A stretch of DNA of 64,000 bases from a virus, in IMG/VR virus record IMGVR_UViG_3300017917_004176, positions 1-64,000 of that record. One strand, given 5' to 3'. Numbering within the stretch: the first letter of the stretch is position 1; the number at the start of each line of letters is the position of its first letter. Positions 7,933 to 37,477 of the stretch are shown piece by piece. The notes below the pieces were generated by a model. That model worked only from the letters and a program-made list of their open reading frames with translations. It made no database searches and had not been told where the DNA came from. The position numbers and the translations under genes were made by a program.

Positions 7933-8330
7933 TTGACAAATGGGAGCCTTTATGTTATAATAGAATTGATTGCCTATTTTTTATTCTCCCATACCACAGC
8001 CGTCCCGCTTCGAGGGTGGCTTGACAATCCCGCTCCATCATGCTATAATTATTATATAAAGAAAAAAATCTTTTTATGGGGAGCGGGAGCCGCACTTCTG
8101 TGAGCCCTAGACAAAATGATTTTTCTATGTTATAATTATTATATAAGGTTGAGATTTGTTAAAACTGATTTCGAGCGAGAGTTCTGGTGAGTGTTGACAA
8201 ATTGAAAATCTTATGGTATAATTATTATGTAAGGTTGAAAAAGTTAAAAAACACCTTACGAACTTCGGTTCGCGAGCAAGTAGTCGGCCTTCGGAAAAAG
8301 GTTGACAAAATGTTTCAAGCATGATATAAT
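7933..8330 (+). promoter_or_regulatory. five tandem sigma-A consensus promoters
   Basis: TTGACA/TAGACA-17-TATAAT at 7933, 8021, 8108, 8194 and 8302, all with TG extended -10. Confidence 0.85.
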
Positions 8331-11054: not shown

Positions 11055-11084
11055 CTCTCGGGGGACTTGTTCCCCCAACTTTTT

Positions 11085-11156
11085 TTTGGAGTAGTTCAGT
11101 GGTAGAACATCTGGCTGTTAACCAGAGGGTCGTAGGTTCGAACCCTACCTCCAAAG
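11085..11156 (+). tRNA. tRNA-Asn(GTT)
   Basis: cloverleaf; anticodon arm tctgg-ctGTTaa-ccaga; GGTTCGAA T-loop. Confidence 0.9.
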
Positions 11157-11157
11157 T

Positions 11158-11229
11158 CGCGGGATAGAGCAGTGGTGGCTCGTTGGGTTCATAACCCAAA
11201 GGTCGTGGGTTCAAATCCCACTCCCGCAA
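11158..11229 (+). tRNA. tRNA-Met(CAT), initiator type
   Basis: C1:A72 mismatch, GGG/CCC anticodon stem, CAT anticodon. Confidence 0.88.
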
Positions 11230-11254
11230 TAAAATAAAAAAAGGAGGCGTGTCT

Positions 11255-11443
11255 ATGGGCAGCAAAATACAATGCAAGAAATGTCTTGATATCATTCAGT
11301 CTGAATATAGACACGACTTCAAGTGGTGCAGTTGTAAGTCCATCTATATAGATGGGGGCTCTGACTATACTCGTATTGGTGGTAATATCGAGAACATAGA
11401 GTTAGACCCAGAGAAGTTCAGATGGGGTACCCAAGTGGTTTAA
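11255..11443 (+). CDS. small Zn-binding phage protein
   Basis: CKKC...HDF..CSC...IDGG.DY.R motif; AGGAGG RBS. Confidence 0.7.
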   Translation: MGSKIQCKKCLDIIQSEYRHDFKWCSCKSIYIDGGSDYTRIGGNIENIELDPEKFRWGTQVV

Positions 11444-11508
11444 GGGGCTTGTTTGCTAAACAAGTAGGTCGCTCGTGCGGCGCGTAGGTTCAAATCCTAT
11501 CCCCATCG
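11421..11508 (+). tRNA. tRNA-Ser(GCT)
   Basis: long variable arm; cttgt-ttGCTaa-acaag; G73. Confidence 0.9.
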
Positions 11509-11511
11509 TAC

Positions 11512-11584
11512 GAACCATTGGCTCAGTTGGTAGAGCATCTGACTTTTAATCAGAGGGTCGGTGGTTCAAGTCCACCATGGTTCA
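11512..11584 (+). tRNA. tRNA-Lys(TTT)
   Basis: tctga-ctTTTaa-tcaga. Confidence 0.92.
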
Positions 11585-11713
11585 TAGGCGCCCAGGGAAA
11601 TGGCAAAAACTCTCCCGACAACACAACAATAACCTACTAACATGGTGCAAGTCCAAAGCCTTCACGGGCAGTAGGTGGCGCTCGATATGTTTATATGCCT
11701 GGAGGTGCTTTAT

Positions 11714-11866
11714 ATGGCTTTGAATAAAGCAATAGCAAGTGGAAAAGAAAAGCGCCAACCATACAGGAAGGCAAAGACTATTGATAAGCAGTGCAGAAAT
11801 CATGGAACTTGTAGATGGTGTTCTGGAAATAGACAACACAATAGTAAAAAAAGAATGTTATACTAA
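11714..11866 (+). CDS. small basic Cys/His protein
   Basis: GGAGG RBS; CRNHGTCRWC motif. Confidence 0.65.
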   Translation: MALNKAIASGKEKRQPYRKAKTIDKQCRNHGTCRWCSGNRQHNSKKRMLY

Positions 11867-11867
11867 C

Positions 11868-11939
11868 GCCATCGTAGCACAACGGCAGTGCAACTGACTT
11901 GTAATCAGTAGGTTGGAGGTTCAAATCCTTTCGGTGGCA
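11868..11939 (+). tRNA. tRNA-Thr(TGT)
   Basis: actga-ctTGTaa-tcagt. Confidence 0.9.
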
Positions 11940-11945
11940 TCTTTT

Positions 11946-12016
11946 AAGGGCATAGTTCAATGGTAGAATAGAGGTCTCCAAAACCTCGGATGGAGGTTCG
12001 AATCCTTCTGCCCTTG
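11946..12016 (+). tRNA. tRNA-Trp(CCA)
   Basis: gaggt-ctCCAaa-acctc. Confidence 0.9.
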
Positions 12017-12134
12017 TTGCAAAAAACAAAATAGGTTGACAAAACCTAAAAAATGATTTATAATTATTATATAAGTTATTTTTAATTGTCTGGTTTGCAG
12101 TGGGTTCGATGCGTCCCATCAAAACGCATACCAA

Positions 12135-12206
12135 GGCCTATTAGTCAAGTGGTGAAGACGCTGCCCTTTCACGGCAGAGTCACAGGTTCGAATCCTGTAT
12201 AGGTCA
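12135..12206 (+). tRNA. tRNA-Glu(TTC)
   Basis: ctgcc-ctTTCac-ggcag. Confidence 0.9.
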
Positions 12207-12207
12207 T

Positions 12208-12281
12208 CGAGGGTTGGCTTAATTGGTTAAAGCACTCGTCTGATAAGCGAGAGATTGTGGGTTCAAGTCCCATACCCTCAA
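12208..12281 (+). tRNA. tRNA-Ile(GAT)
   Basis: ctcgt-ctGATaa-gcgag; first acceptor pair mismatched. Confidence 0.82.
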
Positions 12282-12503
12282 TAAGAAAGAAGGTGTCATG
12301 TATAGACAGAGAACAGCAACATATAGAAATCTCATATCGTGACGCAGAAAGAACAGAAAGACAGGTTCAACAAAATCTATCAGTGGCGAAAGATAAACGC
12401 AGTCAAGACAATAATCTGCCCTCGGATGGTGGAACTCCACGCAAGGGTGTTGCAAGGGTGAAAGGCCCTGCCTGATACGATTTTTTATAGGAGATGGTAA
12501 AGA

Positions 12504-18511: not shown

Positions 18512-19429
18512 ATGACAAAAATTATACATGGTTATGCTTGTGTTTCTGAGTTGAATCCAACTATAAAAACAGGCTCTACATCAACACTAACTTATATCAA
18601 TAGACAAGACGCATCTACTCGCGGCTCTTATTTGCAAACAAAAGCACAAGCAAATATTACTAACTTGCGCAAACTATTGCTCAAAAACTTCGACAATAAC
18701 TTGCTCGCTTATCGCTTACCTGACGACTTTATGCCAATGGCAGACTTGGGTTATTATGACTGGAAATCTTTATACTCTTCTCAGCTTGCAGACATAGGCT
18801 CTCTAATCAATGCTTATGATATGCGCATCTCGTTTCATCCTTCGCAATTCTTTGTGCTTAATTCTGCACAAGACCACACAGTTCAATCTACTATACACAA
18901 CCTCAACATATTCGCAGATATTCTTGCCTCATTCAAAGTTGACCATACACCTACTCTTTTACTTCATGTTGGTGCACTCAACTCTTATCGTAATTGGCAA
19001 GAAGCATCTGACGCTTTTTGTGCTAATTATCAAAAGTTAAATGACAATGCCAAAAAATTTCTTGCAGTAGAAAATGACCAAACTTCTCATAGTACTCAGT
19101 CTTGTCTTCGTATCCACGAACAAATTGGCATCCCAGTAGTTTTTGATAATGAGCATTACAAGTTTAATCCAACACCAAATCTTTCTTTTGATGATGCTCT
19201 TGCTGCGTCTCTCGCAACTTGGAAAGACCGAACTCCCAAAGTTCATCTTTCATCTCATAAAGAAGGTTCAACTCGTCATGCCCATGCAGACTGGTTGCTA
19301 CCACAAGATTATCTACAAGTTTATAATATAGTATCACAATCTGCACACAAAGAAGTAATCATTATGTCCGAAGTAAAAAAGAAGGACGCTGCAGTTGTAA
19401 AATTACTTGATGATTTGAAAAAATTATGA
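18512..19429 (+). CDS. uvsE: UV DNA damage endonuclease
   Basis: RISFHPSQF.VLNS, LAVEND, IPVVFD.EH, PKVHLS, HAD, E.K.KD motifs. Confidence 0.85.
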   Translation: MTKIIHGYACVSELNPTIKTGSTSTLTYINRQDASTRGSYLQTKAQANITNLRKLLLKNFDNNLLAYRLPDDFMPMADLGYYDWKSLYSSQLADIGSLINAYDMRISFHPSQFFVLNSAQDHTVQSTIHNLNIFADILASFKVDHTPTLLLHVGALNSYRNWQEASDAFCANYQKLNDNAKKFLAVENDQTSHSTQSCLRIHEQIGIPVVFDNEHYKFNPTPNLSFDDALAASLATWKDRTPKVHLSSHKEGSTRHAHADWLLPQDYLQVYNIVSQSAHKEVIIMSEVKKKDAAVVKLLDDLKKL

Positions 19430-24240: not shown

Positions 24241-25089
24241 ATGATAAAAGCAGATGTTTATTTTTTTGAAAATATGAAAAAATTACTAGATACAAAAAAT
24301 GTAAATGTTGATGAAAATCCTCGTGCTAGATATGGAGATGGCACACCTGCCTTCTCCCATTTTATCACACAGGTATATGAAGAATATGATATTTCTAAAA
24401 ATGAATTTCCTCTAATTACATTAAGAAAAATTCCTGTTCAGTCTTCTATAAAAGAAATCTTCTGGATATATCAAGACCAAACTTCTGACTTAGAAGTACT
24501 GGAAAAAAAATATGGAGTTACTTGGTGGAGAGAGTGGGAGTCAAAGAGTGTACCTGGCACAATAGGAAATAGATATGGTCATAGCGTAAAAAAGTTTGAC
24601 CAAATAAATAAACTTATTTCTGAATTAAAAACAAATGCTTATAGTCGTAGACATATTATATCTCTTTGGGATATGGATAGTTTTTCTGAAACAGATGGTT
24701 TACTACCTTGCGCTTATGAAACTATATGGTCTGTTCGCAATGTTAAAGGCACTAAATATTTAGATGCAACTTTAATACAAAGAAGTTCTGATTATTTGGT
24801 TGCTAATCATGTAAATAAAATTCAATATGTTGCTCTACAAATGATGCTTGCTCATGTTTGTGACATGAAGCCAGGAAAGTTTGTACACTTTGTTCAAAAC
24901 TTACATATATATAATAAGCATAGATTAGGTGGATCTGAATTAATGAGACGCACTCCCGCTTCTCAACAACCTATTCTAAAACTAAAGCCCGATACACCAA
25001 AAGATTTTTATCAAATAGGTATTGACAATTTTGAATTATTGTGTTATAATATAGAATATCCCCGAATAAAATTCGATTTAGCCATATAG
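24241..25089 (+). CDS. thyA: thymidylate synthase (Bacillus ThyA/ThyP3 type)
   Basis: SRRHIISLW, LLPCAY, QRSSD, NLHIY. Confidence 0.92.
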   Translation: MIKADVYFFENMKKLLDTKNVNVDENPRARYGDGTPAFSHFITQVYEEYDISKNEFPLITLRKIPVQSSIKEIFWIYQDQTSDLEVLEKKYGVTWWREWESKSVPGTIGNRYGHSVKKFDQINKLISELKTNAYSRRHIISLWDMDSFSETDGLLPCAYETIWSVRNVKGTKYLDATLIQRSSDYLVANHVNKIQYVALQMMLAHVCDMKPGKFVHFVQNLHIYNKHRLGGSELMRRTPASQQPILKLKPDTPKDFYQIGIDNFELLCYNIEYPRIKFDLAI

Positions 25090-25220
25090 TCGCTAAACGG
25101 TGGAATTTACATCACATATAGGTAAAAAAAGAGTGCTGAAATTTTTCGGGATTGGTTGAAAAAGATTAACCTGAAATTAATAGTTTTCAAATATATAACC
25201 AAAGAAAAGGAGAGTTATTT

Positions 25221-25424
25221 ATGGAGTTACAAATTCAGTCTACAAAAGAAAAGTTAATAGGTGTCTGTAATGAAAGTGGATTGCCTGCAGGAGTTTTAGC
25301 ATTAGTTTTCAAAGATTTATTATTAGAACTTGAAGCTATTGCTGCAAACAATTTACGACAACAAGCTGCAGCCGCACAAGAACAAGCCACTCCGCTGCCT
25401 GAAGGCCCAGAAGTTACTGAGTAG
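25221..25424 (+). CDS. hypothetical protein
   Basis: AGGAG RBS. Confidence 0.6.
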   Translation: MELQIQSTKEKLIGVCNESGLPAGVLALVFKDLLLELEAIAANNLRQQAAAAQEQATPLPEGPEVTE

Positions 25425-25452
25425 TAGAAAATTGTAAAATAGGGTGATTGCC

Positions 25453-25695
25453 ATGTCAAGAAGTTTCAAGATTTCTAACTTCTATTGTATTCAGTGTGCT
25501 AATAAAATCTCTCTTCCAAGGAAAGCTTCTTCTATAAGAGAGAAAGGGCATCTAAAAAAATTACATTGTGTTAAATGTCGATGCGAAGTTAATCATTATG
25601 AAGTTCGCGAATTTGATGTAGATTTTTCATTAGATGATTTTAAGAATAAGATTATAGCAGGAGGCTTTCCAAGTGAGAAAGATATACAAATATAA
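25453..25695 (+). CDS. Zn-ribbon protein (L33-like fold)
   Basis: CIQC...PRK...REKGHLKKLHCVKC. Confidence 0.6.
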   Translation: MSRSFKISNFYCIQCANKISLPRKASSIREKGHLKKLHCVKCRCEVNHYEVREFDVDFSLDDFKNKIIAGGFPSEKDIQI

Positions 25696-26098
25696 TGATG
25701 AAACAAAGGTTTCAGAAGTTATTTTTAGTAAGGGTAAGATTAGAGCAAGGGCTAAATCAAAACCCCATAAAGATGATTTTCAATACGCTAATAAAATAGT
25801 GGGTCTTCAAATCACAGAATTCAAAGCTTTAATGAAATTCTTGTCCAAAAGAGTTTCGTATAAAGAAGCTAAAATACAAAAGTTAAAAAATCAAATCGAA
25901 AGTATAGAAAAAGAAATTGAAGCCGATAAAGCAGAGGTTTCAGAAATTGCAGAAATCTTAAAAGATTATGTTGAAAAGAAGCATGATTTTTATGAGCAAC
26001 TAAGAAATCCTAAGCCTAGAATTCAATGGAAAGAACTAACTGAAGATATGATGAATAAAGACTTTAAAGAAGTTCTTGATGCCCAAGACAAAAAATGA
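25673..26098 (+). CDS. hypothetical coiled-coil protein
   Basis: GGAGG RBS, ORF. Confidence 0.65.
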   Translation: MRKIYKYNDETKVSEVIFSKGKIRARAKSKPHKDDFQYANKIVGLQITEFKALMKFLSKRVSYKEAKIQKLKNQIESIEKEIEADKAEVSEIAEILKDYVEKKHDFYEQLRNPKPRIQWKELTEDMMNKDFKEVLDAQDKK

Positions 26099-26197
26099 TG
26101 TGATATTTTTTATCGCATCTTTTTTTTGTTGACAGCATTCTAGATTTTGTGGTATAATATAAATATAAATACTAGATGTAGTAGGAGATGGAAAAAA

Positions 26198-28534
26198 GTG
26201 TATAATGTTTTATCAAATGAATTTTTAGAGAAGTATGAAGATTTTAGTCCAAATATGAATGAGCTTGGAAAGTTTGTTTATTTGAGAACATATTCAAGAT
26301 ACTTAACTAGCGAAAATCGAAGAGAGAATTGGAAAGAAACTGTAAAGCGCTCTGTTGAGTTTAATATAAAACAAGAGTTAGACCACTTAACAAGACAAGG
26401 TATGCCTATAACAAAATATAAAAAACAGCGTATTGAACAAGAGGCACAAATGTTTTTTAATTCAATGTATGGGCTTAACCAATTTTTAAGTGGGCGAACT
26501 ATGTGGGTTGGAGATAGTAGTAATTCTGGTATTCAAAAATTTGCAATGGCAAACTTCAATTGTGCCTATACTAAAGTAGAAAAATGGGAAGATTTGGGAG
26601 ATTTATTTTATGCTCTTTTAGTTGGTACTGGTGTTGGCTTTGGATGTCGATTAGAAAATGCAGAGAAACTTGCGCCTATCAGACGCTTTGGTTACTTAGT
26701 TAAATTCAAAGATTATAATTATATTGGCTTCCCTGGAATGATTAGCGAATCTTCTTTAAGCCTAAGTCAAGATACTGCAACCATTGTAATCGGTGACAGT
26801 AAAGAAGGTTGGGTTGGCTCATTAAATATTTTCCTTTCACTATTGACAGATAAAAAATATGACTATATTAAATATATAACACTTGATTTTGATCATGTTC
26901 GCCCTAATGGAACTCCATTAAAAACATTTGGTGGAACTGCATCTGGTCCAGAACCTTTAAAAGAAATGTTCGAAGGAATTCTTAAAGTTATTAGAAATGA
27001 ATACGATCCTGACAATCTAGCCGATCCAATGATAGATGGAAAAAATCCTGCGTATGTAAAAGTTCGTCCTGTTCATATTATGGATATTGCTAATCTAATT
27101 GGTTATAATGTTGTTGTTGGTGGCGTTCGTAGAACAGCTGAAATTTTCTTGCTTGATGAAAATGATATGGAGTCTGTATTTGCAAAGTTTGGATTAAATG
27201 GGCTTTGGACACAAGAACACTATGATAAGTTTACTAAGATTTGGGATATGATTAAAGCAAGTGGTATGAGATATCCAGAGCAAAGATTTTATAAAATGAA
27301 AGATGATTTTTTATCCAAGGGTTTTTATGAAGGAACTGGCTTTCATCATCGCAGAATGTCAAATAACTCAGTAGCATTTATTGAAAAGCCTGCAAAAGAA
27401 TATGTTATGCTTTTAGGTGAAATGATGCAACTAGAAGGCGAACCTGGAATGATTAATTTATATGAAGCTGCTCGTAGAATTTTTGCTGCTATGGGAATAA
27501 GTAATCCAGGACATGAATCAATTTGTGAAGTGGCCAAAGAAATAGGTTTAAATCCTTGTGCCGAAATTATCCTGTTTTCAAAAGGATTATGTAATCTAAC
27601 CACTGTCAATGTTAAGAATTTCGTAAAACAAGAAAATGGAAAACATGTATTAGATATTCAAGGTCTTTTGAATGCTCAAGTTTTATCTGCTCGGGCAGGC
27701 CTTCGCATGACTCTGATTCAACTAGAACTTCCTGAGTGGCATCGAGTTCAATCTACATATCGTTTAACAGGATGTTCATTAACTGGTTATCAAGATGCGC
27801 TTGAAATGGTTGGCTTAACAAAAGAAGATGAAAAAGCTTTACTGGCGGCTCTACGTAAAGTAGGGCAAGATGCTGTTAATCAATATGCAGATGAGCTTCG
27901 CATTCCCGCTCCTTTGTTTGTCACAGCTATTAAACCAGAGGGAACTCTTTCTCAGGTTGCTGGTGGAGTAAGTCCTGGACTTCACTTTTCTCATGCACCT
28001 TATTATATTCGACGCATTCGAATCAATGCTCGTGACCCATTAGCTCTAGCAGTTAAAGAATCTGGCTGGACTATTAATCCTGAGGTTGGAACTCCTGGCG
28101 ATACCTATGAAGAACAAATGAAAAATGCTCGCACACTAGTTATTGATTTTCCTATTGCAAGTGGTGCGTCAAGAACTAAAGATGATGTTTCTGCTTTAGA
28201 ACAATTTGAAATATATAAAACATTTCAAAAATATTATACAGATATGAATACTTCAAATACAATCACAGTTAAGCCTGATGAATGGACTGGATTATTCGAA
28301 CAAATCTATGAAGACTGGGATCAATATGTTGGAGTTTCTTTCTTGGCTTTAGATGGTGGAACATATCAATTAGCGCCATATGAGACCATTACAGAAGAAA
28401 AATATAAAGAATTATCTGCAGTTCATAATCCTCTGAGATTAGATTTACTTCAAGAGTATGATTTAAAACTATATTCTGAATTATTAGATGACACGATGGA
28501 AGGCTGCGAAGCTGGAGTTTGCCCAGTAAGATAA
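26198..28534 (+). CDS. nrdJ: adenosylcobalamin-dependent (class II) ribonucleotide reductase
   Basis: YLRTYSR, NCA, GGVRRTA, NPCAEI, IKPEGT, C-terminal CEAGVCP. Confidence 0.92.
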   Translation: MYNVLSNEFLEKYEDFSPNMNELGKFVYLRTYSRYLTSENRRENWKETVKRSVEFNIKQELDHLTRQGMPITKYKKQRIEQEAQMFFNSMYGLNQFLSGRTMWVGDSSNSGIQKFAMANFNCAYTKVEKWEDLGDLFYALLVGTGVGFGCRLENAEKLAPIRRFGYLVKFKDYNYIGFPGMISESSLSLSQDTATIVIGDSKEGWVGSLNIFLSLLTDKKYDYIKYITLDFDHVRPNGTPLKTFGGTASGPEPLKEMFEGILKVIRNEYDPDNLADPMIDGKNPAYVKVRPVHIMDIANLIGYNVVVGGVRRTAEIFLLDENDMESVFAKFGLNGLWTQEHYDKFTKIWDMIKASGMRYPEQRFYKMKDDFLSKGFYEGTGFHHRRMSNNSVAFIEKPAKEYVMLLGEMMQLEGEPGMINLYEAARRIFAAMGISNPGHESICEVAKEIGLNPCAEIILFSKGLCNLTTVNVKNFVKQENGKHVLDIQGLLNAQVLSARAGLRMTLIQLELPEWHRVQSTYRLTGCSLTGYQDALEMVGLTKEDEKALLAALRKVGQDAVNQYADELRIPAPLFVTAIKPEGTLSQVAGGVSPGLHFSHAPYYIRRIRINARDPLALAVKESGWTINPEVGTPGDTYEEQMKNARTLVIDFPIASGASRTKDDVSALEQFEIYKTFQKYYTDMNTSNTITVKPDEWTGLFEQIYEDWDQYVGVSFLALDGGTYQLAPYETITEEKYKELSAVHNPLRLDLLQEYDLKLYSELLDDTMEGCEAGVCPVR

Positions 28535-28546
28535 GGAGGAAGTTTT

Positions 28547-29962
28547 ATGAAATATGATGTTTTAATCGTTGGAGCAGGACCTACTGGTATTTTTGCTGCA
28601 TATGAACTTATAAATAAAAGCCCCAATCTAAAAGTATTGGTTTTGGATAAAGGACATGAAATTACAAGACGCAATTGTCCTATATTAGAAGGTAGAATAG
28701 AAAAATGTCCACCACCAGCTGGTAAGAAAGATTATGCTGGATGCTTGCCTGCTTGTTCGATAACAAGCGGGTTTGGTGGAGCTGGAGCCTATTCTGATGG
28801 TAAGTTTAATATAACTTCTGAGTTCGGGGGATGGATGTCCGAATACCTACCCCCCTCTCAAGTTTTAGATTTAATTAAGTATGTAGATAAAATTAATCTA
28901 GAAATGGGCGCACCCCTAGAAAAGACTAACCCTAATTCTCCATATATAAATGAGATAGAAAAAAAGGCTATTTCGGCTGGTCTTAAATTATTGAAGGCAG
29001 AAGTAAGACATCTTGGAACTGAGCTCAATTTAGAAATCTTAAAAAGAATATATGATTCTTTGAAAAATAGAGTTGAGTTTAGATTTAAGACTGAAGTTAT
29101 TGATATTGAATTTCAAGATAATCAAGTTCAATCAGTCGTCACTAATAAAGGAGAAGTTTTACACGCAGAAACCTTTATTATATGTCCTGGTCGAGATGGT
29201 TCTATTTGGTTAAAAAACTTATTATCAAAACAAAAAGTTAAGTTTACAAACAATCAAGTAGATATTGGAGTTCGAGTTGAAACTTCTGACGTTATTATGT
29301 CTGACATTAATAAACACTTATACGAGGCCAAGTTTATATACAATACTTCCTTCGGAACAAAAGTAAGAACTTTTTGCTCAAATCCATCTGGTCATGTTGT
29401 AGTAGAAAATCATTCTGGAACAATGCTTGCAAATGGTCATTCTTATAAAGACCCTGTTTTGGCAAGTACAAATACAAACTTTGCTCTTCTTGTCTCTCAT
29501 GTTTTTACAGAGCCATTTAATCTAACTAATGAATATGCTCATGAAATTGCAAGACTTGCAAACCACCTTTCAAATGGTGGATTGATTATTCAAAAGTTTG
29601 GAGATATAATGAAAAATCGTAGAAGCACAGACAAGAGAATAAAAGAAGGGTTTGTTGAGCCAACATTAAAAGAAGCAGTACCAGGTGATTTAGGATTAGC
29701 TCTTCCATATGTGACCATGAAAAGTCTGATAGAAATGATCGAAGCTCTTGATGTAGTTACTCCAGGAATAGCTTCTGAACATACATTATTATATGGAGTA
29801 GAAGCAAAATTTTATTCTTCTCGTCCACAGGTAGACAAGACTTTTAAAACTTCCATTGATAATTTATATGTTGGTGGAGATGGCGCAGGTCTAACTCGAG
29901 GATTAGCACAAGCTAGTGCATCGGGAGTTTGGATTGCTAGAAATATATCTGAAAATAGGTGA
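28547..29962 (+). CDS. FAD-dependent oxidoreductase (COG2509-like)
   Basis: [29 protein letters not shown]. Confidence 0.85.
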
Positions 29963-29966
29963 ACAC

Positions 29967-31166
29967 ATGAGAGATACTAAAATACTAGATTTAATAAACA
30001 AAGAAGCAAAAAGACAAAAAAATAATATAGAGCTCATAGCTTCTGAGAACTTTGTTTCTCAAGATATTTTATTGGCTCAAGGTTCCATACTCACAAATAA
30101 GTATGCAGAAGGATATCCTGGAAGCAGATACTATGGTGGGTGTGAATGGGTTGATGAAGTAGAGCGAGTTGCAATAGAAAGAGCAAAACAATTATTCGGC
30201 GCTGAACATGTTAATGTTCAACCACATTCTGGATCACAGGCAAATACTGCAGTTTATTCTGCGCTTTTAACTCATGGTGATGTTGTTTTGGCAATGGACC
30301 TTGCACATGGTGGACATTTAACTCATGGAAGCCCAGTTAATTTTAGTGGTAAAACATACAATTTTTATCACTATGGAGTTGATAAAGAAACTCATTTAAT
30401 TGACTATGACCAGGTAAGAGAACAAGCTAAAAGACTTCAGCCAAAAATGATAGTTGCGGGTGCAAGCGCATATTCAAGAATAATTGATTTTGCAAAGTTT
30501 AGAGAAATAGCAGATGAAGTAGATGCTTATTTAATGGTTGATATGGCTCATATCTCAGGTTTAGTTGCAACAGGTGCGCATCCAAGTCCAGTACCATATG
30601 CAGACTTTGTTACGTCAACAACACATAAAACCCTAAGAGGTCCTCGCGGTGGAATAATACTAAGTAAGAAAGAATATGGTCCTGCTATAGACAAAGCGAT
30701 TTTCCCTGGTATACAAGGAGGTCCTTTGGTTCATGTTATAGCAGCTAAAGCCATATGTTTCAATGAGGCATTAGATCCATCATTTAAGTTGTATATTGAC
30801 AAAGTTGTTAGGAACTCAAAAAGATTTGCTCAAAATCTTCAAAACAATGGATTTGAAATTATTTCAGGTGGAACTGATAATCATCTTTTTTTAGTTAACG
30901 TTGCTAAAAAAGGACTTACAGGAAAACGAGTAGAAGAAAGTCTAGATGAAATAGGTATAACTCTAAATAAAAATTCCATTCCTTTTGACGAACTATCTTT
31001 TAAAGTGACTAGTGGTGTTAGAATTGGAACAGCCGCCGTAACCACCAGAGGTTTTGATGCTATTGAGATAGATGAGGTCTCAGAGATAATAACTGACTTC
31101 CTCGGCAATAAAATAACAAAACAAGAAGCTAGTGATCGAGTCAAAGACTTGACCTACGTATTCTAA
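29967..31166 (+). CDS. glyA: serine hydroxymethyltransferase
   Basis: [33 protein letters not shown]. Confidence 0.96.
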
Positions 31167-31183
31167 AAAAGGAGAACAAAAAT

Positions 31184-31675
31184 ATGGCAAATGTAAGTCC
31201 TAAGCTTGTAGAGATGTTGAATCAACAAATTGCACATGAAGGCTTAAACTCTCAAAAATATGCTTATATTGGAGCATGGTTGCAAAACAAAGGATTAAAT
31301 AAAATTGGTGCACACTTTTTTCCAGGACAAACTGATGAAGAAAGAAGTCATCAAGATTTAATTCGTGATTATTTAATTAAAAGAAATGAAAATGTTCAAT
31401 CTTATGTTATTCCAGAATTTAAAATGGAACTGTCTGGCGTAACTCAAATTGCTCAATTTTATTTAGCAACAGAGCAAGAAACAACTGCAAAATTAAAAGC
31501 TATCGCACTAGCTGCTTTTGCAGAAGGAGATCTTTTAACTTTTGATTTTGCTATGGACATGGTTCATAAACAATTAAATGAAGAAGATGAGGCTATTACT
31601 TTCTTGGATAAAGCTATTATGGCTGATGATGCTCCAGAAGTATTATTGCTTTGGGATGCAAATTTTTCACTATAA
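31184..31675 (+). CDS. ferritin
   Basis: NQQI..E, EERSH, EQETT, Q.NEE ferroxidase pattern; 163 aa. Confidence 0.8.
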   Translation: MANVSPKLVEMLNQQIAHEGLNSQKYAYIGAWLQNKGLNKIGAHFFPGQTDEERSHQDLIRDYLIKRNENVQSYVIPEFKMELSGVTQIAQFYLATEQETTAKLKAIALAAFAEGDLLTFDFAMDMVHKQLNEEDEAITFLDKAIMADDAPEVLLLWDANFSL

Positions 31676-33710: not shown

Positions 33711-33778
33711 GTTGACAAATCCTTATATTTTTGATATAATATAATTGTAATACAAAATAAATATAAGGAGAATTGTCT

Positions 33779-34852
33779 ATGCAAAAACGTTTTATTCTTA
33801 TCTTTTCAATCTTTGCAGCACTTTCTTTAGTTCTTTCTGCCTGTGGTGGAACGACTGAAGAAACTAAGTTTAAAGTTGGTATGGTTACTGACGCTGGTAC
33901 GATTGATGACAAATCTTTCAACCAAGGAACTTGGGAAGGTGTTTTAAAAGCTGGTAGTGATTTTAATTTAGATACTGTATATCTAAAACCAACTGGAACC
34001 ACTCAAGCAGATTATCTAAGAGAAATCACAAATTTATATGATACTGGTTACAAGCTTATTGTAACACCAGGCTTTAAATTTGAAACTACTATTTTTGAAG
34101 CTCAAACAAAATATCCTGATGCAAAATTCATTTTAATTGATGGATATCCTCATGCAGGAGATTGGGCTCCAGTAGTTGGAGAGAATACAGTTTCTATCTT
34201 CTTCGCAGAACATCAATCGGGCTTCCTAGCTGGTTTGGCTACTGCACTAGAAATTGGAACTGGTAAGGTTGGTTTTATTGGCGGTATGGAAATTCCTCCA
34301 GTTCAAAAATTCAACTGGGGCTTCCAACAAGGTGTTGCTTATGCAAATGCTAATTTTGGAACTACAGTAACTATTGCTCCAGAAGATGTTGTTTATCAAG
34401 GTTCATTCGATAATGTGCAAGCTGGTAAAACTATCGCTGCTGCTATGTATGAACGCGGAGTTAAAGTTATCTTTGCTGCTGCAGGTGGAGTTGGCGTAGG
34501 TGCTATCTCTGAAGCTAAAGATCGTGCATTAGCTGGCGAAGAAGTATGGATTGTTGGAGTAGATGTTGACCAATATGCTGAAGGAGTTTATACAGATGGT
34601 AAGTCAATCATCTTAACTTCTGCTATGAAATATATTGATCAAGCTGCGTATGATATGATTAAAGCTGAATTAGATGGAACATTCCCAGGTGGAGAAATCT
34701 TAACTTTCGATGTTACAAATAATGGAGTAGGTATTCCAAAAGAAAATCCTAATCTTTCAGCTGAAACTGTTGGCAAAGTAAATGAAGTTCTTGAATTATT
34801 AAAAGAGGGAACTGTTACTGTATCTGCTGAGCAAGGCAATTTAATTAAGTAA
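33779..34852 (+). CDS. BMP-family (PnrA/TmpC-like) nucleoside-binding lipoprotein
   Basis: lipobox LSAC; DDKSFNQ, GFLAG, FAAAGG.G.G, GVDVDQ, TSAMK. Confidence 0.88.
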   Translation: MQKRFILIFSIFAALSLVLSACGGTTEETKFKVGMVTDAGTIDDKSFNQGTWEGVLKAGSDFNLDTVYLKPTGTTQADYLREITNLYDTGYKLIVTPGFKFETTIFEAQTKYPDAKFILIDGYPHAGDWAPVVGENTVSIFFAEHQSGFLAGLATALEIGTGKVGFIGGMEIPPVQKFNWGFQQGVAYANANFGTTVTIAPEDVVYQGSFDNVQAGKTIAAAMYERGVKVIFAAAGGVGVGAISEAKDRALAGEEVWIVGVDVDQYAEGVYTDGKSIILTSAMKYIDQAAYDMIKAELDGTFPGGEILTFDVTNNGVGIPKENPNLSAETVGKVNEVLELLKEGTVTVSAEQGNLIK

Positions 34853-34943
34853 TATATCTTTAAGTGGTGCTATCTGGCGGCCCACTCTAAAAAATAAAAG
34901 CCAGAGTTTTATTATAAGGGCGAATTTAAAGGAGTGATGATCC

Positions 34944-35618
34944 ATGTTAAATCGCATTTATGACTGGATTGATGAGCGCCTAGATATTACACCTATTTGG
35001 CGAGATATCGCCGATCATGAAGTCCCAGAGCATGTAAATCCCGCACATCATTTTTCTGCATTCGTATACTGCTTTGGAGGACTTACATTTTTTGTTACTG
35101 TCATACAAATATTATCTGGAATGTTCTTAACAATGTACTATGTTCCAGATATTGAAAATGCTTGGCAATCGGTTTACTATTTACAAAATGAAGTTGCATT
35201 TGGACAGATTGTTCGTGGTATGCATCATTGGGGTGCAAGTGTTGTTATTGTTATGATGTTCTTACACACACTTAGAGTTTTCTTTCAAGGTGCCTATAAA
35301 AAACCACGCGAAATGAATTGGGTAGTAGGAGTTCTAATCTTCTTTGTTATGTTGGCCCTTGGTTTCACTGGATATTTACTACCATGGGACATGAAAGCAT
35401 TATTTGCTACAAAAGTTGGCCTGCAAATTGCAGAAGCAACACCATTTATAGGACCACTATTGAAAACATTATTAGCTGGATCAGCAGATGTTGTTGGGGC
35501 TCAAACATTAGCACGATTCTTTGCGATCCATGTATTCTTTCTACCTGCAGCACTTTTTGCCTTATTAGCAGCTCATTTTATTTTTATTCGCAAACAAGGC
35601 ATATCAGGGCCTTTGTAA
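34944..35618 (+). CDS. qcrB: menaquinol:cytochrome c reductase cytochrome b (b6) subunit
   Basis: VYCFGG, RGMHHW, FLHTLR, FTGYLLPWD, AIHVF, AAHF, GISGPL; 224 aa. Confidence 0.96.
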   Translation: MLNRIYDWIDERLDITPIWRDIADHEVPEHVNPAHHFSAFVYCFGGLTFFVTVIQILSGMFLTMYYVPDIENAWQSVYYLQNEVAFGQIVRGMHHWGASVVIVMMFLHTLRVFFQGAYKKPREMNWVVGVLIFFVMLALGFTGYLLPWDMKALFATKVGLQIAEATPFIGPLLKTLLAGSADVVGAQTLARFFAIHVFFLPAALFALLAAHFIFIRKQGISGPL

Positions 35619-35642
35619 GTTGAATAAGGGAGATGAACATAT

Positions 35643-36404
35643 ATGCAACGCGGAAAAGGAATGAAATTTGTTGGAGATTCTCGCATATCAGCAGATCGAA
35701 AGCCAAATATACCAAAAGATTATTCAGAATATCCTGGTAAGACAGAGGCTTTTTGGCCGAATTTTCTTCTTCGAGAATGGATGGTTGGGTCAGTATTTTT
35801 AATTGGATTTTTATTTTTAACTGCCGCACATTCAGCCCCACTAGAAAGAATTGCAGATCCAACTGATACAAACTACATACCATTACCAGACTGGTACTTT
35901 TTATTTCTATATCAGCTATTGAAATACACATATGCCTCTGGTCCATATACTGTTATTGGTGGACTAGTGCTTCCTGGAATTGCCTTTGGAGCATTACTTT
36001 TAGCGCCATTTTTAGATCGTAGTGAGCATAGACGCCCATGGAAACGACCTTTGGCTACTTCATTTATGCTATTAGGAACAGCTGCAACTATCTACTTAAC
36101 GTGGGAGTCTGTAGTAACAACAGATTGGAATAAACGAGAAGAACAGGGAAAAATTGTGGAAGAAAAAGAAATTGATACAAAAGCAGAAGGATATATATTA
36201 TTGTCGAATAATGGTTGTATATCTTGTCATGGAAATGATTTGGCGGGTGGCGCTGTTGGCCCAACATTAATTAATACTGGACTAACTTCTGAAGAAATAA
36301 AATCAATTGCGATTAATGGAGTAGGCAATATGCCTGCTGGAATATTTAAGGGCACACAAGAAGAACTGCAAATATTGGCTGATTATTTAGCCGAATTAAA
36401 ATGA
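35643..36404 (+). CDS. qcrC: menaquinol:cytochrome c reductase cytochrome b/c subunit
   Basis: EAFWPNFLL, PLPDWYFLFLYQLLK, CISCH heme c motif, axial Met NMPA. Confidence 0.94.
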   Translation: MQRGKGMKFVGDSRISADRKPNIPKDYSEYPGKTEAFWPNFLLREWMVGSVFLIGFLFLTAAHSAPLERIADPTDTNYIPLPDWYFLFLYQLLKYTYASGPYTVIGGLVLPGIAFGALLLAPFLDRSEHRRPWKRPLATSFMLLGTAATIYLTWESVVTTDWNKREEQGKIVEEKEIDTKAEGYILLSNNGCISCHGNDLAGGAVGPTLINTGLTSEEIKSIAINGVGNMPAGIFKGTQEELQILADYLAELK

Positions 36405-36431
36405 TATGAATTTGAAGGGTAGAGCGCCAAA

Positions 36432-36599
36432 ATGAAGGGTAGAATGGTTAAAATATTAAAAGAACATGGAATTAGAAGAGATCCTGAGACTCTTGAAAAA
36501 CTTGAAAGAATAAAGACTCATCGAATTATAAACCTTTATTACAAAGAAATTGTAGACAAAGGGCTCTTAGATTCAGTTGACAAAAATAAAAATTCATGA
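36432..36599 (+). CDS. 55-aa protein, YflJ/DUF2639-like
   Basis: KG..V..LK.HGIRR.....KLE..KTH...NLY pattern. Confidence 0.5.
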   Translation: MKGRMVKILKEHGIRRDPETLEKLERIKTHRIINLYYKEIVDKGLLDSVDKNKNS

Positions 36600-36640
36600 T
36601 ATAATAGGTATATAATTAAATAAATGGAGGAATAAATTCA

Positions 36641-37477
36641 ATGAAAAAAATGATTAACAAGACAGTAGTTGAAGGCGTTTTGCTTGAAAAAGAATTACGC
36701 TCTGGTGTGGCAGAAAAATCTGGAGTGAAGTATATTGCAGGCAAATTACATCTTGAAACTGAAGATGGCAATACTATTTCAGTAGAGCTTTATGAAGGAG
36801 AAAAAACTTCAAAAGGTCTAGAAAATCCTAAGTTTGCTACTTTAAAAAGCATTTATGATAATGCTAAAACAAAGCATAGTGGTGCAGAAAAACCAACTCT
36901 TTTAAAGATTAATTCTGCATTTGGAACAAATGATTGGTATAATAAAGAAGGAGAGCTTGTTTGCTCTTTAGTAAATAAAGGTGGATATATTAATGTTGTA
37001 TCTGCTACATCTCCTAAATCTGAATTTGAAGTAGATGTTGTTATTCAATCAGTAGTTCCTGAGATTCGCAATGAAGTAGAAACTGGTCGCGCTTACGTTA
37101 ATGGTTTAATTTTTAACTATGCTAACCAAGCCCTTCCTGCTAAGTTTGTTGTTGATAATCCTAAAGGTGTAGCTTTCTTTGCTGCTCTGCCAAAAAATAC
37201 TTTTACTCGCGTTTGGGGAAAACAAGTTAACTCTAGTGTAACTTCTGAGCGCATGGAAGAGTCTGCTTTTGGCGATGCTAAAGTTGCAAAAACTTCTTAT
37301 ACTCGTAAAGAGTTTGTTATTACTGGTGCACAAGTTGAACCATATGATGACATGCAATTAACTGCAGATGAACTTAATACTGCTATTCAAAATCGTAATT
37401 TAGCTATGGCAGAATTAAAAAATCGAACAGTATCAAAAGAAACTTCAAAACCAGCTTTTGGTGGATTCTCATTCTAA
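36641..37477 (+). CDS. single-stranded DNA-binding protein (SPbeta YorF-like)
   Basis: N.V.VEG.L.EK start, FG-rich tail, first gene of replication module. Confidence 0.65.
   Translation: MKKMINKTVVEGVLLEKELRSGVAEKSGVKYIAGKLHLETEDGNTISVELYEGEKTSKGLENPKFATLKSIYDNAKTKHSGAEKPTLLKINSAFGTNDWYNKEGELVCSLVNKGGYINVVSATSPKSEFEVDVVIQSVVPEIRNEVETGRAYVNGLIFNYANQALPAKFVVDNPKGVAFFAALPKNTFTRVWGKQVNSSVTSERMEESAFGDAKVAKTSYTRKEFVITGAQVEPYDDMQLTADELNTAIQNRNLAMAELKNRTVSKETSKPAFGGFSF

Follow-up and report, generated by a model that had tools for sequence, protein, structure and literature searches.

Why should a large tailed phage carry two of the three genes of a bacterial respiratory complex, and what could the two achieve when the third is not beside them? 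The question is raised by positions 34944–36404 of a 64-kb window (the whole stretch of DNA under analysis, namely the first 64 kb of the 92,171-bp IMG/VR virus record IMGVR_UViG_3300017917_004176), where adjacent open reading frames (ORFs) encode intact homologues of QcrB and QcrC, the haem-bearing core of the Bacillus-type menaquinol:cytochrome c reductase, next to no gene for its Rieske subunit QcrA. Based on the evidence assembled in this study, the pair is understood as a genuine host-derived qcrB-qcrC cassette, carried as cargo in a variable slot of a large tailed phage and still under constraint, a reading in which our confidence is evenly divided. To judge from its sequence, its function is most likely that of an auxiliary metabolic cassette dependent on host QcrA. 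That a phage of an aerobic Bacillota host expresses these core subunits, and that they combine with the Rieske protein of the cell to form a hybrid bc complex, part viral and part bacterial, sustaining or boosting proton motive force during infection, is a further step that we propose only tentatively.

The QcrB and QcrC proteins and the missing Rieske subunit

The two genes lie on the coding strand of the surrounding phage genes:

34944–35618, plus strand: qcrB, intact gene for the 224-aa b6-type cytochrome b of menaquinol:cytochrome c reductase
35643–36404, plus strand: qcrC, intact gene for a 253-aa fusion of subunit IV with a monohaem cytochrome c

QcrB scores 413.9 bits against the NCBIfam model NF002990 (cut-off 325), with profile positions 1–223 of 223 covered, and it matches PF00033 at 4.6e-49. 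A 21-sequence alignment shows no variation at its Cys43 (in YCFGG), His94, His108, His196 or His211; the four histidines align with the haem ligands of cytochrome b6 (PDB 7r0w) and Cys43 with the cysteine that binds haem cn there. Four transmembrane helices are predicted from hydropathy, and identity to QcrB is 85–92% for Bacillales and 91–92% for Bacillus. QcrC combines an N-terminal subunit IV/PetD-like membrane domain (PF00032 at 1.2e-9, aligned to b6f subunit IV residues 29–144), which holds the Qo motif PDWY at 82–85, with a C-terminal cytochrome c domain (PF13442 at 7.6e-11) having CISCH at 192–196 and the axial Met230 in GNMPAG. Its full-length matches, at 68–82% identity, are to proteins that their sources name menaquinol-cytochrome c reductase b/c subunit. 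Near-invariant columns are changed at 3 of 149 positions in the phage QcrB and at 6 of 134 in QcrC, all of the alterations being conservative and within the range of single bacterial sequences. Each gene is preceded by a Shine-Dalgarno site, AAAGGAG for qcrB and GGGAG for qcrC. A preliminary description of the locus, made from the letters of the sequence, had claimed just such an intact pair, with four haem-b histidines, the haem ci cysteine in YCFGG, the PDWY, CxxCH and axial methionine of QcrC, and ribosome-binding sites (RBSs), placed between phage genes. The alignments, profile matches and motif positions given above bear it out on each of these points, and the location was confirmed as well, a nucleotide-metabolism block being found upstream and a replication module downstream.

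The same description had noted that no qcrA stands beside the pair, and this observation can now be extended. The gene directly upstream of the phage qcrB is bmp, not qcrA, and the Rieske family PF00355 gave no match at E<=1 on the entire 92,171-bp record, while control genomes did give matches. A search for a qcrA remnant in the spacer between bmp and qcrB, compared with 14 bacterial qcrA-qcrB junctions, returned only noise. Given that about 40% of the phage genome lies outside the record, the exact claim is that there is no qcrA on these 92 kb. The bacterial arrangement is strikingly uniform by comparison: qcrA, qcrB and qcrC are contiguous in 79 of 80 loci, in agreement with the operon that the preliminary description had named for Bacillus. 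At the 14 bacterial junctions inspected, the end of qcrA contains the RBS of qcrB, and downstream of qcrC stands a conserved hairpin terminator; both features are missing from the phage.

Transcription unit, cassette edges and phage surroundings

The elements that place the pair in a phage regulatory context are the following:

33712–33740, plus strand: perfect sigma-A-type promoter (TTGACA, 17 nt, TG-extended TATAAT), 12 of 12 consensus positions, likely driving bmp-qcrB-qcrC-orf55
33779–34852, plus strand: bmp, first gene of the unit, encoding a Bmp/PnrA-like lipoprotein (nucleoside-type substrate-binding protein of an ATP-binding cassette transporter) with lipobox LSAC, PF02608 at 2.4e-67
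34853–34943, plus strand: bmp-qcrB spacer, AT-rich, 91 nt, with its own RBS
36432–36599, plus strand: orf55, small phage ORF of 55 aa directly downstream of qcrC
36577–36605, plus strand: next perfect consensus promoter, located after qcrC at the end of orf55, start of the replication-module unit

The first promoter lies 39 nt upstream of the bmp start, and the ATG at 33779 agrees with a 357-aa database entry. No terminator or attenuator was found in the bmp-qcrB spacer, whose fold is no better than that of shuffled sequences (z=0.40); the sole terminator-like match is a weak one within qcrB, and none is convincing before 36577. The simplest reading of this layout is a single transcription unit, bmp-qcrB-qcrC-orf55, that would be read by the host sigma-A RNA polymerase. 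The promoter belongs to a larger set, with 16 perfect TTGACA-N17-TATAAT matches in the window as against 0.07 expected from shuffles. They extend from 1349 to 50044 (for example at 7933, 8021, 8194, 8302, 33457, 33712 and 36577), and most of them carry the TG dinucleotide at -15/-14 as well as an A behind the -35 hexamer; three of the 16, near the left end, are on the minus strand. By their sequence the 16 look like the early/middle promoters of the phage, made for the host sigma-A polymerase. A phage sigma factor encoded elsewhere on the record (phrog_5767) suggests a switch from these host sigma-A promoters to phage-specific late promoters.

On the right, the inserted cassette is bounded by orf55, since this ORF is kept in close relatives of the phage. 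Flanking direct repeats that could be understood as insertion scars were sought and none was convincing, nor are there long repeats at the junctions. Within the unit, the 12 nt TAATGGAGTAGG recur exactly, with agreement at 16 of 19 nt overall, at window positions 34713–34734, in the 3' part of bmp, and 36307–36328, in the 3' part of qcrC. The two copies are 1,594 bp apart, which is near the cassette length, and both code for N-G-V-G. The match is probably due to chance; recombination between the copies would delete the cassette. As regards bmp itself, there is no permease or ATPase near it, and its product is a candidate nucleoside-scavenging auxiliary metabolic gene (AMG) product that must dock on a host transporter.

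The further surroundings leave the viral nature of the locus in little doubt and contain these features:

11084–12282 of the window: cluster of 8 tRNA genes (Asn, Met, Ser, Lys, Thr, Trp, Glu, Ile)
18512–19429 of the window: UvdE-type UV damage endonuclease, upstream of the cassette
24241–31675 of the window: nucleotide/one-carbon block with ThyA, ribonucleotide reductase (RNR, 795 aa), a 471-aa FAD-dependent oxidoreductase, serine hydroxymethyltransferase (SHMT) and a ferritin-like protein
88600–89595 of the record, minus strand: the phage sigma factor (phrog_5767)

Upstream of the cassette and on its strand there follow the tRNAs, which account for a GC-rich bump at 10–14 kb, UvdE, ThyA, RNR, the FAD-dependent oxidoreductase (with GIDA and FAD-depend_C signals), SHMT, the ferritin-like protein, a DUF5824 protein, thioredoxin and the Bmp/PnrA-like lipoprotein. 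The listed ORFs of SHMT and the oxidoreductase share 47 nt, for which reason the real start of SHMT may lie further along. On the downstream side the genes encode a Sak4-like protein, a DnaB helicase, a primase, a RecJ-like exonuclease and a DnaE-type polymerase of 1,263 aa; the rest of the record includes a portal protein, a 1,505-aa tape measure protein and a tail fibre in addition to the sigma factor. The cassette is some 35 kb and 56 kb distant from the two contig ends, and this distance, together with hallmark genes on both sides, locates it inside a tailed-phage genome. Large siphophages of the SPbeta-like and EF1-like groups have a YorL-like DnaE-type polymerase and genomes of about 130–150 kb. 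In full-length comparison the present polymerase shares 44–45% identity with SPbeta YorL and with its counterparts in Enterococcus phages EF1, H1 and VRE9, and the kinship to be read from these sequences is a distant one only. The record is linear and without terminal repeats; CheckV estimates it to be about 60% complete, and the full genome is put at about 150 kb. No tyrosine or serine recombinase or integrase was found on the 92-kb record, a result that, with about 60% of the genome covered, is not decisive for lifestyle. The host is probably an unsampled low-GC bacterium of Bacillaceae type.

Occurrence, donor and selective constraint

The preliminary description named no earlier case of respiratory bc-complex subunits in Bacillota phages, and this was upheld by every collection searched. 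Among 2.9 million IMG/VR contigs no other was found with QcrB or QcrC, using scans with QcrB, with QcrC and with the 21-sequence QcrB alignment, the last of which relied on N-terminal motifs invariant in Bacillaceae. No PHROGs family matches QcrB, QcrC or Bmp, and the literature searched holds no report of phage-borne qcrB/qcrC or of bc-complex subunits. A tblastn search of 50,697 GenBank phage records gave no qcrB/qcrC carrier except for a match in Helicobacter phage Pt11470_1 (PQ159902.1), with 39% identity to QcrB and 33% to QcrC. These matches lie in the last 1.1 kb (35684–36736 of 36761) of a linear prophage-derived record, where the final two ORFs, hypothetical by annotation, have matches to cytochrome b and to the bc1 gene that comes after it. 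They are most simply explained as host bc1 DNA at a prophage boundary, and we do not count Pt11470_1 as a second phage.

Relatives of the phage are known mainly from protein-cluster tables, scans of viral collections having returned no very close one. In these tables, relatives on contigs of 83,588 and 63,327 bp have Bmp at 91–92% identity, and copies of orf55, 89–98% identical, occur on both of these and on a contig of 88,477 bp; the relatives' downstream 278-aa protein, DnaB helicase and thioredoxin fall into the same 90% clusters as those of the phage. The phage QcrC is the single member of its cluster, and the protein database contains no other QcrC above 82% identity. Relatives sharing the flanks thus appear without QcrC, which marks the cassette as strain-specific cargo and not as a conserved feature of the lineage. 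Bmp, unlike qcrBC, is kept in close relatives and represents conserved cargo; because it occurs there without qcrBC, the two are not an obligate pair. The nearest relative that can be read in IMG/VR (L056, IMGVR_UViG_3300022752_004296; 63% identity of a neighbouring protein) has the same order of RNR, DUF5824, ferritin and replication genes, with glycosyltransferases replacing thioredoxin, Bmp and QcrBC:

2845–9923 of L056: slot with a DUF5824/Hva1-TUDOR protein, a ferritin-like protein and three glycosyltransferases, two of them with tetratricopeptide (TPR) repeats

There is no cytochrome b on this 46.8-kb contig. The slot between the nucleotide-metabolism and replication modules is a variable cargo hot spot.

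The bacterial source of the genes lies outside the genomes sampled. The best match of the phage QcrC in a database of 5.8 billion clusters is a protein, here P0122, on an unplaced 2,187-bp JGI contig, with 82% identity. Identity to any named genome is at most 75%, and the best QcrC among one genome each of 185,579 species reaches 74%; a metagenome scan returned no QcrC copy at least 82% identical, the P0122 contig included. The comparison of phage and host copies by phylogeny, as the preliminary description had proposed, places the phage QcrC among homologues from Bacillus-type bacteria. In the tree of 120 sequences it is the sister of P0122 with 100% support and a stem of 0.17, and the two have in common the derived states K44R, A107G and G140S, among others. 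Genomes with the closest QcrB (92%) have a QcrC of only 67% identity, so that an identification of donor or host could not be sustained: no sampled genome is close for both proteins, which puts the donor lineage outside the sampled set. Among 401 Bacillales genomes sampled, a single QcrB match is the rule (382 genomes) and no genome has a pair, and prophage-borne extra copies of qcrB are therefore not common in bacteria.

Evidence on selection had to be obtained in an indirect way. Nonsynonymous divergence (dN) from the bacterial copies is about 0.08 for qcrB and 0.22 for qcrC, with synonymous sites saturated against every copy; since saturation leaves no usable ratio, a test on the positions of substitutions took the place of dN/dS. 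To this end 118 other sequences served to polarise the positions at which the phage QcrC and P0122 differ. Seventeen changes are specific to the phage protein since the split, and only four of them fall in columns of at least 90% conservation, which make up 64% of all columns (binomial p=0.0007). The sister branch to P0122 exhibits the same pattern, with 5 of 14 changes in conserved columns (Fisher p=0.69). Because the phage-specific changes avoid conserved columns, the branch leading to the phage QcrC is regarded as having been under purifying selection. Relaxed selection, which the preliminary description had named as an outcome that would speak against it, was not seen, and the phage copy is not decaying. 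The base composition at third codon positions (GC3) is phage-like, with values of 0.25 for qcrB and 0.21 for qcrC, compared with about 0.15–0.25 in neighbouring phage genes and medians of 0.42 and 0.36 in bacteria.

A proposed hybrid complex, its rivals and known systems

How might two subunits serve a phage? The cassette has been trimmed to two ORFs, given its own spacers and RBSs, and set together with bmp behind a phage consensus sigma-A promoter, from which, in the scheme that we propose, host RNA polymerase would transcribe bmp-qcrB-qcrC. Host machinery, comprising haem synthesis, system II cytochrome c maturation and the covalent attachment of haem ci at Cys43, would insert both haem-bearing subunits in the membrane and load them with haem; QcrB and QcrC would then assemble with the host Rieske protein QcrA. 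The menaquinol:cytochrome c reductase activity so raised or maintained may support proton motive force and ATP supply during copying of the large genome, or in the lysogen if the phage is temperate. The need for host QcrA, haem and cytochrome c maturation is taken over from the established biochemistry of bc complexes, and from sequence we infer expression, assembly with host QcrA, physiological benefit and the age of the cassette in the phage lineage. Why QcrB and QcrC should be limiting is a matter of speculation: they might turn over faster after shut-off of host transcription, by analogy with D1/psbA. Alternatively, and no less speculatively, the cassette could bypass the growth-phase repression to which the qcr operon of B. 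subtilis is subject. The Bmp protein, if co-transcribed, points to nucleoside scavenging and would fit a cargo unit of energy plus precursors. The preliminary description had taken the phage to supplement or remodel host respiration by way of the host Rieske protein. This interpretation is supported in part: the intact genes, their phage setting, the lack of a Rieske partner on the record and the absence of precedent in the collections searched agree with it, and of the expression that it would require there are promoter and RBS signals. The adaptive interpretation is strengthened by the promoter unit, by the exact trimming to two ORFs and by the constrained substitutions. A pair of genes that is intact, constrained, trimmed and placed in a phage regulatory layout argues, moreover, against misassembly and against a raw, very recent capture; a recent acquisition from an unsampled host, or exchange among phages, could account for the cassette.

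Considerations of several kinds weigh against this interpretation. QcrB and QcrC cannot carry out quinol oxidation at the Qo site without a Rieske subunit, and with bacterial qcrA co-transcribed with qcrBC there is no evident reason for QcrB and QcrC alone being limiting. The slight chance of a qcrA elsewhere on the genome, given a record of about 60% completeness, weakens the adaptive account. The cassette is known from one metagenomic contig only, and at least two relatives with both flanks, those on the 83.6- and 63.3-kb contigs, very probably do not have it, as judged from protein tables. The constraint on the QcrC branch could have acted while the gene still resided in a bacterium outside the sampled set, ahead of a recent transfer, and the lowest bacterial GC3 values, 0.19–0.23, mean that a low-GC donor would explain the composition of the cassette as well.

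A rival explanation is recent passenger DNA, acquired from an unsampled host by illegitimate recombination, without benefit to the phage and intact only through the short time elapsed. Such an origin would agree with the apparent absence of the cassette from relatives having both flanking genes at 89–98% identity, with its uniqueness in IMG/VR and the GenBank phage records, with an unsampled donor whose own copy might be nearly identical, and with the existence of bacterial copies of low GC3. Raw capture would usually bring along partial neighbours, however, and here nothing is left of qcrA, of the overlapping RBS or of the operon terminator; both genes have their own spacers and RBSs inside a phage transcription unit, and the nearest known QcrC, among 5.8 billion clusters, reaches no more than 82% identity. 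We consider passenger DNA an unlikely explanation, if one of real weight. An assembly chimera, in which a host fragment was falsely joined into a phage contig, would have to be entertained for any single carrier contig from a metagenome. It would have required two precise false joins leaving two complete ORFs on the phage coding strand between conserved phage genes, with no host flank, a phage-like GC3 and no long repeats at the junctions, and the QcrB and QcrC proteins are recorded from both JGI/IMG and Logan sources, all of which makes misassembly highly improbable.

The absence of qcrA from the record admits of two other interpretations. The whole complex might be encoded by the phage, with qcrA on the roughly 40% of the genome outside a record that is linear and without terminal repeats. 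There is a slim chance that this is so, and it is slim because qcrA directly abuts qcrB in nearly all bacterial loci (79 of 80), yet the phage cassette is cut exactly at the qcrB start, and because 92 kb gave no PF00355 match. Or the two subunits could act independently of the Rieske protein or interfere with it, as an incomplete haem complex that titrates host QcrA or the caa3 supercomplex, that alters redox signalling or signalling by reactive oxygen species (ROS), or that forms a membrane redox module of its own. The missing qcrA is what speaks for such a role. Retention of the PDWY Qo motif and of every residue typical of canonical QcrB and QcrC, with no new domains and no accelerated change at conserved positions, is not the pattern that a new function would lead one to expect, and it renders this the least probable of the explanations considered.

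Lastly, if the proposed reading is true, this would be the first virus to carry the membrane-bound catalytic core of a quinol:cytochrome c reductase, and the cassette would stand to respiration as psbA of cyanophages stands to photosynthesis. It would suggest that energy-efficient bc-caa3 respiration can limit phage production in Bacillus-type hosts, and it would constitute a natural experiment on subunit exchange, with phage proteins that must work together with a host Rieske protein not co-evolved with them. Were the cassette only passenger DNA, it would still reveal the precise uptake and re-wiring of host operon fragments by a cargo slot. Phage takeover of the host energy supply is well documented for photosynthesis in cyanophages; to our knowledge, takeover of aerobic respiration in heterotrophic bacteria is hardly documented.

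Comparison with known systems emphasizes both the kinship and the novelty of the phage genes. With the qcrABC system of the Bacillus subtilis type (the b6c complex), the phage shares the length of QcrB, its four histidines, Cys43 and four predicted helices, and the fusion of subunit IV to cytochrome c in QcrC; the bacterial operon differs in having qcrA, a host-regulated promoter and an operon terminator, whereas the phage has bmp and a phage promoter, no qcrA on the record and no terminator. No structure of the Bacillus-type complex was found in a sequence search of the PDB, and the closest solved structure is the PetB/PetD core of cytochrome b6f (PDB 7r0w, 6rqf, 1vf5), whose cytochrome b6 aligns by sequence over QcrB residues 3–224 (E=1e-59) and whose subunit IV aligns over QcrC 35–153. 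Unlike b6f, the phage and Bacillus form joins subunit IV and a c-type cytochrome in one protein, and its quinol is menaquinol. The electron-transport genes of cyanophages (psbA, psbD, petE, petF, PTOX, ndh) are alike in being host-derived, carried by phages and thought to sustain the energy supply during infection. Among them, petE and petF are genes for soluble carriers. The cyanophage genes compiled in PMC12801897, a recent paper, include psb, psa, petE, petF and ndh, with no cytochrome b6 or subunit IV. In contrast to the cyanophage genes, those of the present phage encode both haem-bearing subunits at the core of the quinol:cytochrome c reductase itself, and the host is of a non-photosynthetic, Bacillota type. 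The electron-transport AMG as a type is already known; the core of respiratory complex III in a Bacillota-type phage is what is new here.

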